Virus record (IMG/VR): IMGVR_UViG_3300031998_000003
Coordinates: 96,001-160,000 of that record
Source: a virus
Taxonomy: Duplodnaviria; Caudoviricetes
Strand: one strand, 5' to 3'
Length of the DNA stretch: 64,000 nt
Shown: one piece after another, positions 15,179-20,822 of the stretch
Position numbering within the stretch: position 1 is the first letter of the stretch
How the letters are laid out: every line of letters begins with the position of its first letter
Made by a program: the position numbers and the translations under genes
The notes under the pieces: generated by a model
What the model was told of the DNA's origin: nothing
What the model saw: the letters and a program-made list of their open reading frames with translations, nothing else
Databases searched by the model: none

Positions 15179-15219
15179 ATGGCATAGTGGAATATACAAA
15201 CACTATTGTTGAATGCCGA

Positions 15220-15257
15220 ATGGTTCCTGCAGCCGATAAGTGCAGGAGAAACGGAGG
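15220..15257 (+). promoter_or_regulatory. conserved 5-prime leader hairpin abutting the SD (copy 1)
   Basis: TCCTGCA-GCCGATAAG-TGCAGGA; near-identical copy at 40466 with a compensatory base pair. Confidence 0.7.
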
Positions 15258-15264
15258 AATCATT

Positions 15265-17079
15265 ATGACTATCGAAGAAATCAAAGCAAAACAGAGTGAG
15301 CTTATGATCAAACATGCAAAGCTCGGATGCGAAATTCTTGGAAAGGAGGTATGTGCTGAAATTTCTCAATGGAGAGATGCTGGTATTGAACTTTCACAGA
15401 ATATTTCTGACAGATCTCAGCAGCAGCTGATGTCGGTTATCAATGCTGATACGATTCTGAAGAACCTTTCAAGTATGGATGCATCCATTTTGGAAGGCGC
15501 TGTAGATCTTGATAAGGTTAGACAGAATGCAGATCAGCTGAAGAACAATATTGAGTCTGATCTCAACAATTGGGAACTCATTCTTCATGCACTTTTTGCG
15601 CTTTCATGTATCGATGAAAATGAGCCTGTTCAGAAGCCAGATCCTCAGCCAAAGCCGGCCAATGAATCGATCAATACCGATAAAAACGATTCACCGAAGG
15701 GTGATTTCATTGATCCAGAACTTGCCAAAGTTATATTGGATTCAATTGACAATATCGTTGATAATATGTCAAAAGGTAACGAGATGCCTGCTGGTTGGGA
15801 ATGGCTTGATGTTTATCATATTAACCCAAAGCTGCAGCGCAACAGATACATTGTCAACAATGAAACTGAAGAGGTTGTCGACACGGTGACCGGCTATCAA
15901 GTTGAGTCAAAGGTGTTCAAAGATGGCGAGAAGCTTCTCTTCAAAACAATCGACAGAAATGTTGTTTATGTCCGTAAAAGCCTGATATTTACGGCTAAAG
16001 AAACCGAAACAAAACCGAGCAAACCAGCTTGTTCACTTGTATCATCCAAGATGCTCGACTGGAATTCTCGCATAGATAAAACCCGATATCGTATCTATGC
16101 GGATGGACGTATCGAGGATACCAAAACAGATACATTTCTGAAACCGATTGATGGATGTTCCGTAGCACTTGAAACCGTCAACCGAGGTAAAGGCATGTGG
16201 TTAATCCACGAACTGGTATGGGCTGCTTTCCATCCAGAGGATCTTCCCAACATTCGGAAAACCGGGAATGTATACCGTATAAATGGCCGAGTTGATGATA
16301 ACAGACTGTCTAATCTGATCTTCAAAGTGAATGTGGTGTCTTCAACAATGACACACAACAAAATGAATACTCCAGCCGAAACAAAGACTGATGGTGATGA
16401 TACTTTGAAAGAAGTACCGAAAGCCACAAAACAGTCTATCGAAGAAAAGAAACCGAAAATTGAATATAGATGCATTGACTGGATTCCTGGGATCGACGGC
16501 TCGAGATATTCGATCACGAGAGATGGTACAGTCGTTGACAATCGGTATAGAGCCAAGCCAGTTGTGCCGAAAATGCTCAACGGCAAACGTGTTGTCAAGC
16601 TGCTCGGAAAACGAAACAAGACCGCGACTTACACAATTGCTGACTTGTTAAATCGTGCATTCCCGGATCAGCCACAGGCGGTTCGTTCGTCTGGTAAATT
16701 CCGGATCGAGGATGTCACTAGACCCCTTGACCGCAAAACAGTTGCGTCAAAAGAAACATCTGAACGGATGATTCCTGTTGATTGGATTGACGGTATTCCT
16801 TCGACAAAATATTTGGTTTCGGAACAGGGATATGTCTTCAATACCATCAGCGGAAAAAGAATCATCCCGAATGCATCCGGAACAATCAACATGTCGGATT
16901 CAATCAACAGAGGATCACGCAAATTACGGATCCATATGAAAATGGAATCACTGATCTGGAAGGCATTCCATGTGGAAGATCGTCGGCTTGAGAAAGTTTA
17001 CATCGATCATATTGATGGTGATGTAGCAAACTGTGCGATCGAAAATCTGCGCAAGAAAATTGTTGATAGAAAGAGCTGA
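15265..17079 (+). CDS. NUMOD4/HNH-repeat protein, probably degenerate nuclease
   Basis: Four W...RY.I...G.V-like units; HELVWAAF...INGRVDDNRLSNL and IDHIDGDVANCAIENL HNH-like motifs. Confidence 0.65.
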   Translation: MTIEEIKAKQSELMIKHAKLGCEILGKEVCAEISQWRDAGIELSQNISDRSQQQLMSVINADTILKNLSSMDASILEGAVDLDKVRQNADQLKNNIESDLNNWELILHALFALSCIDENEPVQKPDPQPKPANESINTDKNDSPKGDFIDPELAKVILDSIDNIVDNMSKGNEMPAGWEWLDVYHINPKLQRNRYIVNNETEEVVDTVTGYQVESKVFKDGEKLLFKTIDRNVVYVRKSLIFTAKETETKPSKPACSLVSSKMLDWNSRIDKTRYRIYADGRIEDTKTDTFLKPIDGCSVALETVNRGKGMWLIHELVWAAFHPEDLPNIRKTGNVYRINGRVDDNRLSNLIFKVNVVSSTMTHNKMNTPAETKTDGDDTLKEVPKATKQSIEEKKPKIEYRCIDWIPGIDGSRYSITRDGTVVDNRYRAKPVVPKMLNGKRVVKLLGKRNKTATYTIADLLNRAFPDQPQAVRSSGKFRIEDVTRPLDRKTVASKETSERMIPVDWIDGIPSTKYLVSEQGYVFNTISGKRIIPNASGTINMSDSINRGSRKLRIHMKMESLIWKAFHVEDRRLEKVYIDHIDGDVANCAIENLRKKIVDRKS

Positions 17080-17089
17080 CGTTTCATCT

Positions 17090-17123
17090 GAGAACCCCGC
17101 GTAAACGGGGTTCTCTTTCTTTA
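17090..17123 (+). terminator. intrinsic terminator
   Basis: GAGAACCCCG-CGTAAA-CGGGGTTCTC followed by TTTCTTT. Confidence 0.65.
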
Positions 17124-17141
17124 AATTTAAGGAGGATAAAT

Positions 17142-18056
17142 ATGATCGCACTTGAGTTGATTAAAAAGCTGATGACAGAATCTGGTATCAAATATCAGAT
17201 CCAATCACATCATGAATTATCCAAATTCGGGAGAATCCATCATGTGATTGTCACCAATAACCCAGATGCCGATGCAATGAAACTCGATGATTTTGTCGAA
17301 AGATCCGTCGATGAATATCACGAATACATCGCTGATGTCAAAGCTGCTGTAACCGCGGCTGTCCGAAGTGGTGGTTGGGTATCAAACCAGATCATTCTTT
17401 TCTCGGATACTGCATTATTGCAGCTTCGTGAACTGTCTGGCCTGGCGAAAACGCTGGACGACGATTATTTCATCATCTCGTTCGCTGAACAGACATCTGA
17501 AACGACCGGTTTGAGACAGTTCGTGCAGCCTGTGATATCCGTCATTGACATTTCGGAAGAAGAGCCGATCAACTTGATTGCCTTCGAAAATCTGAAATTC
17601 ATTGTCAAAAATGTCGGATACAATTGTTACTATTCTGCATACGATATCCTGGATATGATGTCAATCGGCAACCAGGTAACGCTGACCAAAGAATCAAATT
17701 ATTACTCACTATCCGACATAAAACAGGAATGTATGTCTAGCATTTATGAATATCAATGTCTGGAGTTCTGGTCGAATATCCGGATTGATCCGAAACTGGA
17801 TATGCATGATATCGACCAGATTCTGATTGAGGCTAATCAGAAATTGTCTGAGCAGGAAATATTCACATGCAAGTCCTGTGGAAAACATTATACTATTTCA
17901 GAAGACGAACGGAAATGGTATGCCGATAGGAAGTTCAATCTCCCGAAGAAGTGTTCTTCATGTCGGTATGATGAACGCAGAAAACGTCGGGATGCCGAAC
18001 GTGCTGCGGAGATGAAAGAGATGTATCAGGAACTTGGGTTCGGCGTTCTTGATTGA
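17142..18056 (+). CDS. protein with C-terminal zinc ribbon (zf-trcl-like)
   Basis: FTCKSCGKHYTISEDERKWYADRKFNLPKKCSSCR. Confidence 0.7.
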   Translation: MIALELIKKLMTESGIKYQIQSHHELSKFGRIHHVIVTNNPDADAMKLDDFVERSVDEYHEYIADVKAAVTAAVRSGGWVSNQIILFSDTALLQLRELSGLAKTLDDDYFIISFAEQTSETTGLRQFVQPVISVIDISEEEPINLIAFENLKFIVKNVGYNCYYSAYDILDMMSIGNQVTLTKESNYYSLSDIKQECMSSIYEYQCLEFWSNIRIDPKLDMHDIDQILIEANQKLSEQEIFTCKSCGKHYTISEDERKWYADRKFNLPKKCSSCRYDERRKRRDAERAAEMKEMYQELGFGVLD

Positions 18057-18108
18057 CTCCACTGATTATAATTTGTCCATATGTACAACATGTATGTATG
18101 GGCAATAT

Positions 18109-18191: not shown

Positions 18192-18276
18192 TCATCACAG
18201 GAGATGAGAGGTTCCAGCACCTCTTCGCGGTCCCTCAATGAAACTGCGTAGTTTAAGGGTAAAACCCCTGTGTTGA
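18192..18276 (+). ncRNA. circularly permuted tRNA-like RNA (YrlA/Y-RNA-like topology)
   Basis: Order T arm, closed acceptor stem, TA, D arm; the two ends pair as the anticodon stem (CACAGG/CCTGTG). Confidence 0.65.
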
Positions 18277-18297
18277 TTCAAGGCGATGCATCGCCTC

Positions 18298-18382
18298 AGA
18301 TATGTGTAGTTGAGACGGTTACAATACCGACAAGGGCGCCCCTTGAGTCGGAGGTCGCAGGTTCGAATCCTGTCACATATCT
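18298..18382 (+). ncRNA. tRNA-like RNA with anticodon loop replaced by an extended hairpin
   Basis: AGATATGTG/CACATATCT acceptor, D arm, CCGAC/GTCGG stem enclosing AAGGGCGCCCCTTGA, GGTTCGAATCC T arm. Confidence 0.7.
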
Positions 18383-18390
18383 TCAAGATT

Positions 18391-18485
18391 GAGTTTCGTA
18401 TATGCTGGATGGCAGAAGCAGCCGGTTGAACGTTCCCGGTGAGCCACATGAGGGCTTCGTAGGTTCGAATCCTACAACGAAACTC
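18391..18485 (+). ncRNA. type II tRNA-like RNA with a 10-nt non-canonical anticodon loop
   Basis: GAGTTTCGT/ACGAAACTC acceptor, TGCT/AGCA D stem, GCCGG-TTGAACGTTC-CCGGT, variable arm, canonical T arm. Confidence 0.7.
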
Positions 18486-18493
18486 TGATCTTG

Positions 18494-18569
18494 AAATACG
18501 CGTAGCTGGGTTGGTTACAGCGCCCGGGCGCACCTGGGAGTACGTGGGTTCGAATCTCACCGCGTATTT
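18494..18569 (+). ncRNA. tRNA-like RNA with shortened anticodon loop
   Basis: AAATACGCG/CGCGTATTT acceptor, GCTG/CAGC D stem, CCCGGG-CGCA-CCTGGG, GTGGG-TTCGAAT-CTCAC. Confidence 0.7.
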
Positions 18570-18591
18570 TTTATTTGAAAGGAGGATCGAT

Positions 18592-18903
18592 ATGATCCGT
18601 GTACATGCATTGAAACATGGTGATTACAATAATCAGCTTCCCGCAACGGGATGGATCTATTTACATGGAGAACTTCAGGAAGAAGCCGGTTTCGATTTGT
18701 GTCATATCGATCAAGTTCCTGAAGAAGAAGGTATCTACGATTGTGAAGTAATCCTACCGAATCATGATACCAGACAATGTAAGCTATACTACTGGAAATC
18801 AAGGCGTAGGAAGATCGATCGTGGATTGATTGTATTGGCCAATCATCCAGGTGACAATAAGTTTGCTGAGATAAAATTCAGAATTCGTTCTGACGGATTG
18901 TAA
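18592..18903 (+). CDS. hypothetical protein
   Basis: AAGGAGG RBS before MIRVHA. Confidence 0.7.
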   Translation: MIRVHALKHGDYNNQLPATGWIYLHGELQEEAGFDLCHIDQVPEEEGIYDCEVILPNHDTRQCKLYYWKSRRRKIDRGLIVLANHPGDNKFAEIKFRIRSDGL

Positions 18904-18916
18904 AGGAGATGATGAT

Positions 18917-19333
18917 ATGTCAAGTGTATATGGTGGACCTGCAGATGCAAAGCTTGAAAACGAGCTTTCTGAACCGGAAGGCGACCTGGATTGTGGTACG
19001 TCGAAAACATCTGATGACTATCGAAAATTCCGCCAGATTCAGTTCCATATGTATTGGGATGCTAGAAGCAGAACCATTCAAGAACCTGACAATATCGACA
19101 TGAAGATCTTGTATGATCTGAAACCTGAGGATCTTCTGGTTGTATATTTTGACACAAAAGATCATGGCGTCCCTGGGTTAAAACCAGATGTTATCCGCGA
19201 AGTTATGCACCAACTCAGTGAGAAGTACAAATGTAAGGTTGTTGCATTACCGTATGCAACGATGATTGCTCGGGAAGACAAAGAGACATTCACGAAGCGA
19301 CTTCAAGAGCTTATTAAATATCTCGAAGAATAA
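18917..19333 (+). CDS. hypothetical protein
   Basis: AAGGAG RBS. Confidence 0.7.
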   Translation: MSSVYGGPADAKLENELSEPEGDLDCGTSKTSDDYRKFRQIQFHMYWDARSRTIQEPDNIDMKILYDLKPEDLLVVYFDTKDHGVPGLKPDVIREVMHQLSEKYKCKVVALPYATMIAREDKETFTKRLQELIKYLEE

Positions 19334-19489
19334 CAGTAAATTGAGAGCGGTTGGCTTCGGCGTGAACTGTGGATTTATTGTCATAATGGAACTAATTCGA
19401 GCGGGGAGTATCGACTGCCATGCTTTGATCCCTTGGAAATAGATGGATTGTCCGATATTAGATCCTTTGAAGTTATGGTGTAAATTCGT

Positions 19490-19624
19490 ATTATTAATGT
19501 ATGCAAGTGGTCATAAGCAACCCATGTAGGGTATGAGCTTCCACACAATGTTCCGGCCGGGACTTATGTAAAACTCGCAATTGCGAGCGGGGGCTACGCG
19601 GGTTCGAATCCCGCCATTAATAAT
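19490..19624 (+). ncRNA. tRNA-like RNA with a large multi-hairpin insertion in place of the anticodon loop
   Basis: ATTATTAATG/CATTAATAAT acceptor, TGC-AAGTGGTCATAA-GCA D arm, GCGGG-TTCGAAT-CCCGC T arm. Confidence 0.65.
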
Positions 19625-19691
19625 AAGCTCGACAAAGTGAAATCAATCATGAAGGGTCCGACGCCTTCATGCATCGGATATATTGATATAT

Positions 19692-19765
19692 CGGGATGTG
19701 GTGAAGTTTGGTATCACGCCACTTTTGGGAAGTGGAAGCCCAGGGTTCGAATCCCTGCATTCCGA
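19692..19765 (+). tRNA. tRNA-Pro(TGG)
   Basis: Cloverleaf; CCACT-TTTGGGA-AGTGG. Confidence 0.92.
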
Positions 19766-19820
19766 GTAAAAGGCACGTACAGCAATTCTAACGAATGAAT
19801 ATGATCGTTTGTGCCTTGTA

Positions 19821-19898
19821 GGTGAAGTAGCTCAGGTGGTAGAGCGTCGGGAGTGTAACTCCTGCAGGGATGTCAGGTTCGAGACCTAACCTTCACCA
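19821..19898 (+). tRNA. atypical tRNA, GTA (Tyr) anticodon, possibly non-functional
   Basis: GGTGAAG/CTTCACC acceptor, normal D arm, CGGGA-GTGTAAC-TCCTG; extra spacer base, mismatched T stem, no long variable arm. Confidence 0.5.
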
Positions 19899-19904
19899 TC
19901 ATTC

Positions 19905-20315
19905 CACATCAAAAGAGTAATTTCAAAAGCCGCATCCTGGAAGGGTCCAGGATGGGTAAGCTTTACCAAGGAAACCGTTGCAGTGCACAAGGATAAGAGT
20001 AATGTAGATATGCTGCAGTTCCTAGTATCGGACGGGTACGAAACCTTGGTTGCGTCATGGGCGCTAGTAAGACGCGCTCTGCCGAAATGAGCCTAAACGT
20101 AAAGCCATAGTCGAAAGGATTCATGTTTACTGCATATCTTGGACATGAATCGCAAAGTAGCTGGTAGGAAAAGGATGATACGGCATATTCCCCTAGTAGT
20201 GGCGAGCGAAAAGGGATCCACAAAAGAGCATGGGGAGCCATAGCTCCGAACACGTGCTTGCGAGTGGTTAAAAACGCCCTGGAACGGGTATGGACGGTTA
20301 TGAAATTTTGATGTG
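19905..20315 (+). ncRNA. large ornate ncRNA with 23S rRNA domain I-like helices
   Basis: Ends pair (CACATCAAAA..AATTTCA..AGCCG / CGGTT..TGAAATT-TTGATGTG); many internal stems; CCCCTAGTAGTGGCGAGCGAAAAGGG. Confidence 0.7.
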
Positions 20316-20402
20316 AGATATGACAATGACTGTGAATTGTTCCAGACTATTTGGTTAGCGCGGGATCAGAAACGGGTTCACCAGAATAGTTCATGAGTCT
20401 AG

Positions 20403-20506
20403 ATTGTTGTGTGAGCGGGAACGCACTGGCCACCTAGCGAGCCAGGTATACCGGAGGATTCCGGCGAACATAATTGAAGTGAGACGCATAAATTACACAC
20501 AACAAT
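20403..20506 (+). ncRNA. closed multibranch structured element
   Basis: ATTGTTGTGTG/CACACAACAAT closing stem with CTGGC/GCCAG and CCGGA/TCCGG hairpins. Confidence 0.5.
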
Positions 20507-20507
20507 T

Positions 20508-20596
20508 GGAGTCGAGACGTGATGACCGCAAGGTCAGGTGGTGTGGCGAAAGTGCGCATTCTCGTCGCACAGTGGGTTCGATTCCCACACGGCTCT
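20508..20596 (+). ncRNA. tRNA-like RNA with a GNRA tetraloop hairpin and long extra arm
   Basis: GGAGTCG/CGGCTCT acceptor-like stem, TGACC-GCAA-GGTCA, GTGTGGCGA/TCGTCGCAC arm, GTGGG-TTCGATT-CCCAC. Confidence 0.6.
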
Positions 20597-20822
20597 TCAG
20601 TATGCTATACAGCATACAGAACCAGAGTCAGGAAGTTCTTTCCTTAACACTAGATCTGTCGACGTGCGTGAATGATGAGAAATACATCAATATATCGGCG
20701 GGATGGACTGACCACAACGTTGGGCTGGATTGAATGAAATGGCGTAGGTCGGACTCGGACATGGGATCCCTATACTGTGTCCGAGAGATCGGTTATAATC
20801 CGGGAAACCGGTTTACATATAT

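Follow-up and report, generated by a model that had tools for sequence, protein, structure and literature searches.

Conserved tRNA-shaped RNAs without anticodons in a tRNA island of a rumen jumbo phage: possible processing handles and RNA scaffolds

The window analysed here, a stretch of 64,000 nucleotides (nt), comprises bases 96001-160000 of the 248,669-base-pair (bp) IMG/VR virus record IMGVR_UViG_3300031998_000003 (42% G+C, with an estimated completeness of ~92%). It belongs to a jumbo phage (249 kb) of the rumen, whose DNA is present in bovine-gut metagenome runs and one of whose virion proteins has only distant relatives, at 22-28% identity, in Bacillus, Staphylococcus and phiKZ-type jumbo phages. 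Two non-coding islands, at 18.06-21.2 kb and 26.6-29.8 kb, hold between them ten ordinary transfer RNA (tRNA) genes, all called by ARAGORN on the + strand. The first island also holds all five of the elements that concern us, E1-E5—tRNA-derived sequences that have lost the means of decoding, four of which are conserved in related phages with compensatory changes in their stems. Sequence reading and folds placed all five on the + strand where the original prediction had put them (bit scores refer to the Rfam tRNA model RF00005, with a family cut-off of 29 bits):

18298..18382, + strand: E1, a tRNA-shaped RNA (Rfam tRNA, 47.6 bits)
18391..18485, + strand: E2, a class-II-like cloverleaf (fold; ARAGORN 'tRNA-??? 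(aacg)' at 18393-18485)
18493..18570, + strand: E3, a tRNA-shaped RNA (Rfam tRNA, 41.9 bits; ARAGORN '???(gc)' at 18495-18569)
19489..19625, + strand: E4, a candidate tRNA scaffold with cargo (Rfam tRNA, 19.6 bits, E=0.02, below the cut-off)
20508..20598, + strand: E5, a T-arm RNA without a D arm (fold; in Rfam only an insignificant tRNA-Sec match)

E1 combines a 9-bp acceptor stem (extended by G-1:C73 and N-2:U74), a D arm and a T arm at 18357-18373 with a 10-bp helix (5+5 bp) that replaces the anticodon arm at 18327-18351 and carries a 2-nt bulge and a CGC triloop. E2, which the Rfam tRNA model leaves unmatched, has a 9-bp acceptor stem, a D arm, a 10-nt loop containing the palindrome GAACGUUC, a long variable arm of 5 bp and a T arm. 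E3 consists of a 10-bp acceptor stem, a D arm, a 6-bp stem with a CGCA loop and a T arm, and is followed by a U run; some 7 nt further on stands the ribosome-binding site of the next open reading frame (ORF; AGGAGG, ~18577-18582), whose ATG at 18583 lies 13 nt past the element. The largest of the five, E4, is closed by an 11-bp helix and has a class II D arm of the tRNA-Ser type and a T arm, between which lie ~77 nt in all—a small hairpin at the position of the anticodon arm and a 'variable arm' built as a three-way junction that includes the hairpin CUCGC-AAUU-GCGAG. In E5, a 7-bp helix (G+1 preceded by U-1) closes the structure; it encloses a GCAA hairpin, then a long one whose tip, GUGCGCA, is conserved, and finally the T arm, after whose stem a single A (20589) stays unpaired before the 3' strand of the closing helix begins.

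A 7-nt anticodon loop in its usual setting (a 5-bp stem, U33 and an anticodon at 34-36) occurs in none of the five elements, nor in any of their orthologues; the loops at the anticodon position measure 3 nt in E1, 10 nt in E2, 4 nt in E3 and 5 nt (on a 4-bp stem) in E4, and E5 has none. Nor does any element show the 7-bp acceptor stem with unpaired discriminator and tail of an ordinary tRNA: pairing runs to 9-11 bp in E1-E4 and to 7 bp plus the bulged A in E5, and whereas the real tRNAs of this phage extend pairing beyond 7 bp by 0-1 bases, E1-E4 do so by 2, 2, 3 and 4. The T arms themselves are not chance matches to the T-loop motif, because among the motif matches genome-wide a paired T stem occurs only inside the two tRNA islands, on the + strand; a strict scan finds 13 T arms there, of which 5 belong to E1-E5. 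Most of the anatomy originally predicted from the sequence was borne out, including the D arms of E1-E4, their absence from E5 and the undetermined calls expected of tRNA finders, which ARAGORN returned for E2 and E3. Some details needed correction: the paired acceptor and perfect T arm claimed for all five hold with the reservation of A 20589 in E5, the extended acceptor helices reach 11 bp where 9-10 bp had been given, and the GNRA tetraloop thought to replace the anticodon arm of E5 is the GCAA hairpin, which sits at the D-arm position instead. The lack of an encoded CCA is likewise true of all five, but discriminates weakly, since 5 of the 10 real tRNAs also lack one.

Searching with a virion protein brought up seven related IMG/VR phages, most of which likewise have tRNA islands, extra T arms and '???' calls, and a scan of metagenome contigs with the E4 D-arm motif added three closer relatives (L054, L062 and L065) and a distant E4-like element (L033). 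Other routes were less productive. Single-protein searches with two flanking genes (304 and 376 amino acids) found no relatives in IMG/VR or among GenBank phages; a blastn comparison of the complete island with 50,697 phage records in GenBank recovered nothing but the real tRNAs Leu, Pro and Asn; and the E1-helix pattern, searched in IMG/VR, met besides G002 only five unrelated coding sequences.

In the resulting alignments, 94-99% of the stem cells of E1, E4 and E5 are paired, as against 40-65% when the stem partners are slid. E1 is represented by five copies (the window phage, L062, L065, L009 and L054), with ~79% identity between two lineages, 98.6% of stem cells paired and 3 compensatory pairs, which fall in the acceptor, D and T stems. 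The helix that replaces its anticodon arm, 10-12 bp long, is invariant in sequence across the copies; it forms a perfect 12-bp stem in L009, and a 2-nt deletion leaves the bulge in the others. The E3 orthologues of L065 and L054 are 81% identical to the window copy and keep all stems, with a compensatory change in the acceptor, while the hairpin at the anticodon position has 4 bp and a GGAG loop there versus 6 bp and CGCA in the window; in a further relative, seen in a contig from an RNA run, the E3 site holds only a 30-nt acceptor/T minihelix. E4 has eight copies (the window phage and seven orthologues) with an invariant D arm and 6 compensatory pairs. Its closing helix, 9-13 bp long, is present in 8 of 8 copies with sequences unrelated between lineages, and five copies conserve its hairpin CUCGC-AAUY-GCGAG, which L062 lacks. 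The five copies of E5 (the window phage and four orthologues) show 95.7% of cells paired and 6 compensatory pairs. Only two of them, those of the window phage and L065, have the GCAA hairpin; to judge from this distribution the hairpin is dispensable, and E5 would appear to need neither it nor a D arm.

On the evidence of these alignments, at least four of the five elements—E1, E3, E4 and E5—have been kept in shape by evolution and so are working RNAs, of still putative role, rather than dead tRNA genes. The original argument that intact stems reflect selection and not decay therefore stands for these four but is not supported for E2, whose cloverleaf is not conserved and which may be an exapted tRNA copy that is now drifting. 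No orthologue of these four, or of E2, is a normal tRNA; normal tRNAs at the orthologous loci, together with random decay of the present copies, had been named in advance as a result that would refute the prediction. As to ancestry, the D-arm motif of E4 also sits in real phage tRNA-Ser, with equal D arms, so E4 descends from a class II tRNA; the 3' half of E1 equals the T arm of tRNA-Pro in relatives, and the search for its origin yielded nothing further.

The island as a whole is a mosaic, its units being 70-100% identical to different relatives in different combinations. E2, E3 and a 106-amino-acid ORF form a cassette (window 18391-18903) that the window phage shares with L054 and L065. L009 and L062 lack it, and their next unit follows E1 directly; E1 itself is absent from L008. 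Further odd tRNA-derived units occur in relatives (L009:3185-3338, L010:3184-3320 and L008:11438-11558). In one, a tRNA body surrounds an additional T arm and an additional D arm; in another, ~75 nt are inserted into a canonical acceptor/D/T body (Rfam 46.5 bits); and a third, of 119 nt, resembles tRNA-Leu (28.4 bits).

Three other features of the island bear on how the elements might be used:

18062..18105, + strand: candidate promoter region, a conserved element that precedes the island (93% identity to the corresponding stretch in L008)
20395..20507, + strand: conserved non-coding RNA (ncRNA) upstream of E5, nearly invariant in the window phage, L008, L062 and L065
21160..21199, + strand: strong intrinsic terminator closing the island (13-bp stem with 8 G-C pairs, then a T10 run)

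The closing stem of the ncRNA, for which no matching Rfam family was found, ends 2 nt before the first base of E5, and this spacing—E5 starting at G+1 after U-1—recurs in all five phages that have the element. Abutting an ncRNA in five phages in one case and lying near a ribosome-binding site in the other, E5 and E3 look like features of tRNA-type punctuation. Judged by layout, both have the arrangement typical of plant-mitochondrial t-elements and mascRNA (MALAT1-associated small cytoplasmic RNA), namely a minihelix adjoining the RNA whose end it defines.

The reading we favour, tentatively and with a probability of roughly 0.45, is that E1, E3, E4 and E5 arose by exaptation of tRNA gene copies and now provide handles and scaffolds within a polycistronic RNA array. 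E1-E5 would be transcribed together with the ten real tRNAs and many small structured RNAs as a long RNA, in which the elements would fold as a tRNA-like body, or at minimum as an acceptor/T-arm minihelix, and take no part in decoding. The tRNA-like part would act as a handle for host ribonuclease (RNase) P on the 5' side and RNase Z on the 3' side, and possibly for modification enzymes, giving precise ends and tRNA-like stability to the element and precise ends to its neighbours. In E5 and E3 the handle itself may be the purpose, as punctuation; an RNase P cut at E5 would create the 3' end of the ncRNA at 20395-20507. E1 and E4 would instead be tRNA scaffolds bearing a conserved cargo, namely what was once the anticodon or variable arm. 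The data show tRNA ancestry, the loss of decoding and conservation accompanied by compensatory change; that the array is transcribed as one unit, that RNase P and RNase Z cut it and what partner the cargo has are the parts of this reading that we infer.

Several observations favour such an arrangement. The conserved upstream element and the strong terminator that bound the island count for an array, and the absence of an encoded CCA from half of the real tRNAs means that the host must process them with RNase Z and a CCA-adding enzyme; the phage encodes no CCA-adding enzyme of its own that we could find. A handle function is further favoured by E5, which does without a D arm, and by the relative whose E3 site is occupied by a bare acceptor/T minihelix. 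Because mascRNA requires an extended acceptor stem, the sealed ends of E1-E4 do not exclude cleavage by RNase P. Punctuation by RNase P and RNase Z had been among the uses first proposed, and it fits E5 and possibly E3, but leaves unexplained why three mimics abut and why the cargo of E1 and E4 is conserved; it is because the E1 helix and the E4 arms are so strongly conserved, beyond what punctuation accounts for, that we read them as cargo. The companion proposal, that the tRNA elbow is used as a module, holds insofar as the T loops are mostly conserved; it does not extend to E5, which has no D arm, to the E1 copy of L054, which has lost the T-loop consensus, or to the relative in which E3 is reduced to a minihelix.

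There is also a good deal that weighs against handles and scaffolds. E1, E2 and E3 adjoin one another, so that cuts there would free no RNA in between; bacterial RNase P or RNase Z could be impeded, not helped, by the 2-4 additional bp that close off the discriminator and trailer of E1-E4; and real tRNAs already punctuate much of the island. In L054, E1 lies on the reverse strand and has the T loop AUCAUCC in place of UUCGAAU, while its anticodon-arm helix is identical to that of the window phage—here the helix, not the handle, is the conserved part, though the low coverage of the contig leaves room for an assembly error as well as for a real change. All that the positional homologues of E2 in L065 and L054 retain is the T arm. 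The alignments comprise 5-8 sequences from few lineages, drawn from IMG/VR and rumen metagenome contigs, so that shuffle controls overstate significance and the slid-partner controls are the fairer ones. Finally, the evidence on RNA comes from contigs of four rumen metatranscriptome runs, which barely cover the elements: E1-E3 are covered in one run only, where their depth is low and equal to that of the ORFs next to them, and E4 and E5 are uncovered. As contigs carry no information on ends, they allow no statement on the expression or processing of the mimics.

A possible, if rather doubtful, alternative is that the elements form a widespread and so far undescribed class of phage RNAs—non-decoding tRNA bodies acting in trans, through a host reader of tRNA shape or through RNA assemblies joined at their tips. 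As decoys or sponges, tRNA-shaped bodies would soak up a factor of the host or a protein of its defences, for instance an anticodon nuclease, a tRNA-modifying toxin or RNase P, and having no anticodon they would bind without entering translation. Three tandem mimics make sense as products in their own right, the determinants of the L shape (the T loop and the D-loop GG) are conserved in E1, E3 and E4, and sealed ends of 9-13 bp would prevent charging. Yet the anticodon nucleases PrrC and RloC, and colicins, recognise the anticodon loop, precisely the part that is absent here; E5 has no elbow, and one E1 orthologue has no T-loop consensus; the neighbourhood of E1-E5 yielded no partner gene for defence or tRNA repair; and stoichiometric decoys counter catalytic toxins poorly. 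We therefore regard decoys as unlikely. Assembly through arm tips, in which self-complementary loops pair with one another to form dimers or larger complexes with neighbouring ncRNAs, draws on a striking series of palindromes: GAACGUUC at the tip of E2 (18427-18436), GCGC in E3, AAUU (19590-19593) and GGCC (19564-19567) in E4, and UGCGCA (20552-20557) in E5, the last kept in 4 of 5 copies. The GGCC tip, shared by the window phage, L008 and L065, is UGCA in L009 and L054, so its palindromic character is kept. A precedent exists in ROOL and GOLLD, tRNA-adjacent phage RNAs that form RNA-only multimers, ROOL having first been found in rumen data (PMC5737381; bioRxiv 10.1101/2024.12.08.627333). The window has no ROOL or GOLLD match, however, four-base loops are poor kissing partners, any perfect DNA palindrome yields a palindromic tip, and neither the E1 loop nor the E3 loop of L065 is palindromic, all of which makes self-association quite improbable.

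Decay, by which the elements would be functionless dead copies of tRNA genes in a fast-recombining island, accounts well for E2 with its unconserved cloverleaf, and could draw on the mosaic structure, on the presence or absence of E2, E3 and the 106-amino-acid ORF as a block, on the absence of E1 from L008 and on the degenerate T loop of E1 in L054. Beyond E2, which alone fits, it encounters the stems of E1, E3, E4 and E5, all kept through compensatory changes and paired far above the slid-partner level, the lack of any orthologue that is a normal tRNA, and the conservation of features foreign to tRNAs, namely the E1 helix, the closing helix and hairpin of E4 and the tip of E5; as an account of the set, we give it a low probability. 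Hardly any credence attaches to the idea that these are intron-bearing tRNAs that become normal after splicing, or readers of non-triplet codons, despite the 4- and 2-base 'anticodons' that ARAGORN proposes and the expanded loop of E2. No loop sequence usable as an anticodon is conserved among orthologues, the E1 helix of L009 is fully paired and offers no bulge-helix-bulge, and the ends are sealed and encode no CCA. A tRNA with a group I intron was considered separately and set aside, the inserts measuring 8-77 nt where >200 nt would be expected, with no intron family matched.

Handles and scaffolds of this kind have counterparts elsewhere, each of which matches in part. In plant mitochondria, t-elements are non-decoding tRNA-like folds in polycistronic transcripts at which cuts by RNase P and RNase Z make the ends of the neighbours (the tRNA-punctuation model; Forner et al. 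2007, PMC1920247), a layout shared by E5, next to a conserved ncRNA, and by E3, just upstream of an ORF. The present elements differ in belonging to a phage and its bacterium, in having mostly ncRNA neighbours, in the sealed 9-11-bp ends of E1-E4 and in the cargo of E1 and E4, and cleavage is here an inferred step. At the 3' end of MALAT1, mascRNA likewise makes the 3' end of an upstream ncRNA, and an extended acceptor stem in which leader and trailer pair is a required part of the signal (Torabi et al. 2021, PMC8457004); but it is cut by eukaryotic nuclear RNase P, keeps a hairpin resembling an anticodon arm, receives CCA and has no sequence relationship to the phage elements. A viral cluster of non-decoding tRNA-like elements is also known from murine gammaherpesvirus 68, whose tRNA-microRNA-encoded RNAs are fused to pre-microRNA hairpins and release the adjoining small RNAs through tRNase Z (PMC4838037), although this is an animal herpesvirus with RNA polymerase III promoters inside the tRNA-like part and microRNA hairpins as neighbours. 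Bacterial and phage Y RNAs of the YrlA type are tRNA-derived and non-decoding, have T and D arms, occur in phages and are in some cases cut by RNase P (Chen et al. 2014, PMC4201824), but they are circularly permuted, with ends at the anticodon-stem position, and adjoin Ro60, whereas E1-E5 keep the normal order of tRNA arms. The tRNA region of phage T4 yields RNAC and RNAD, small stable RNAs whose function is still unexplained (PMC3014915, PMC9697503) and which have no sequence relationship with E1-E5.

Two known classes were considered as identities for the elements and rejected: Y RNAs, given the tRNA-like arm order, the absence of a TROVE/Ro60 gene from the 249-kb genome and of any Rfam Y-RNA match at E<=5; and transfer-messenger RNA, of which ARAGORN found none, the Rfam model matching only the T arm of E4 (18 nt) and no element having G3:U70. 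Engineered tRNA scaffolds for RNA expression, reportedly described by Ponchon and Dardel in 2007, resemble E4 and E1 in that cargo replaces the anticodon arm while the tRNA body gives processing and stability; those are artificial designs, and the phage elements are natural and conserved.

Elsewhere in and around the island, a pair of genes bearing signatures of HNH or treble-clef endonucleases immediately precedes it (window 15187-18056) and may be linked to its mosaic, cassette-like evolution. The unit at 18192-18297, which separates tRNA-Leu(CAA) from E1, shows 96-98% identity to its counterparts in five relatives where these align, and the adjacent tRNA-Leu, at 75-89%, is far less similar. 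The two small ORFs between E3 and E4 had no Pfam or PHROG match and gave only sub-threshold results in an Atlas look-up. An RNA of ~411 nt follows tRNA-Tyr (window 19905-20487), and its part at ~20165-20225 seems, by comparison with the E. coli sequence, to resemble domain I of bacterial 23S ribosomal RNA. Closely related RNAs abound in three independent metatranscriptome runs from the rumen, with contig depth of up to ~300 versus 2-6 in the flanks, and one such contig begins at 19909 with adapter sequence directly before it.

In full-text literature searches we found no description of conserved anticodon-less tRNA-shaped RNAs in phages; one survey notes 'tRNA-like' candidates only in general (PMC10690425). 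The tRNA genes of phages are usually read as supplies for codon usage or against host defences, and calls that look odd are dismissed as pseudogenes. In this island, four of the five such calls are conserved RNAs that have kept the architecture of a tRNA and lost decoding, which suggests that large phages put tRNA genes to a second use, as handles for processing and as stable scaffolds on which small RNAs are carried. Confirmation would provide a rule for locating where the numerous unannotated RNAs of phage tRNA islands end, would give engineered tRNA scaffolds a counterpart in nature and would supply candidate RNAs that interact with tRNA-recognising host proteins, and the conserved cargo arms of E1 and E4 are open to direct testing.

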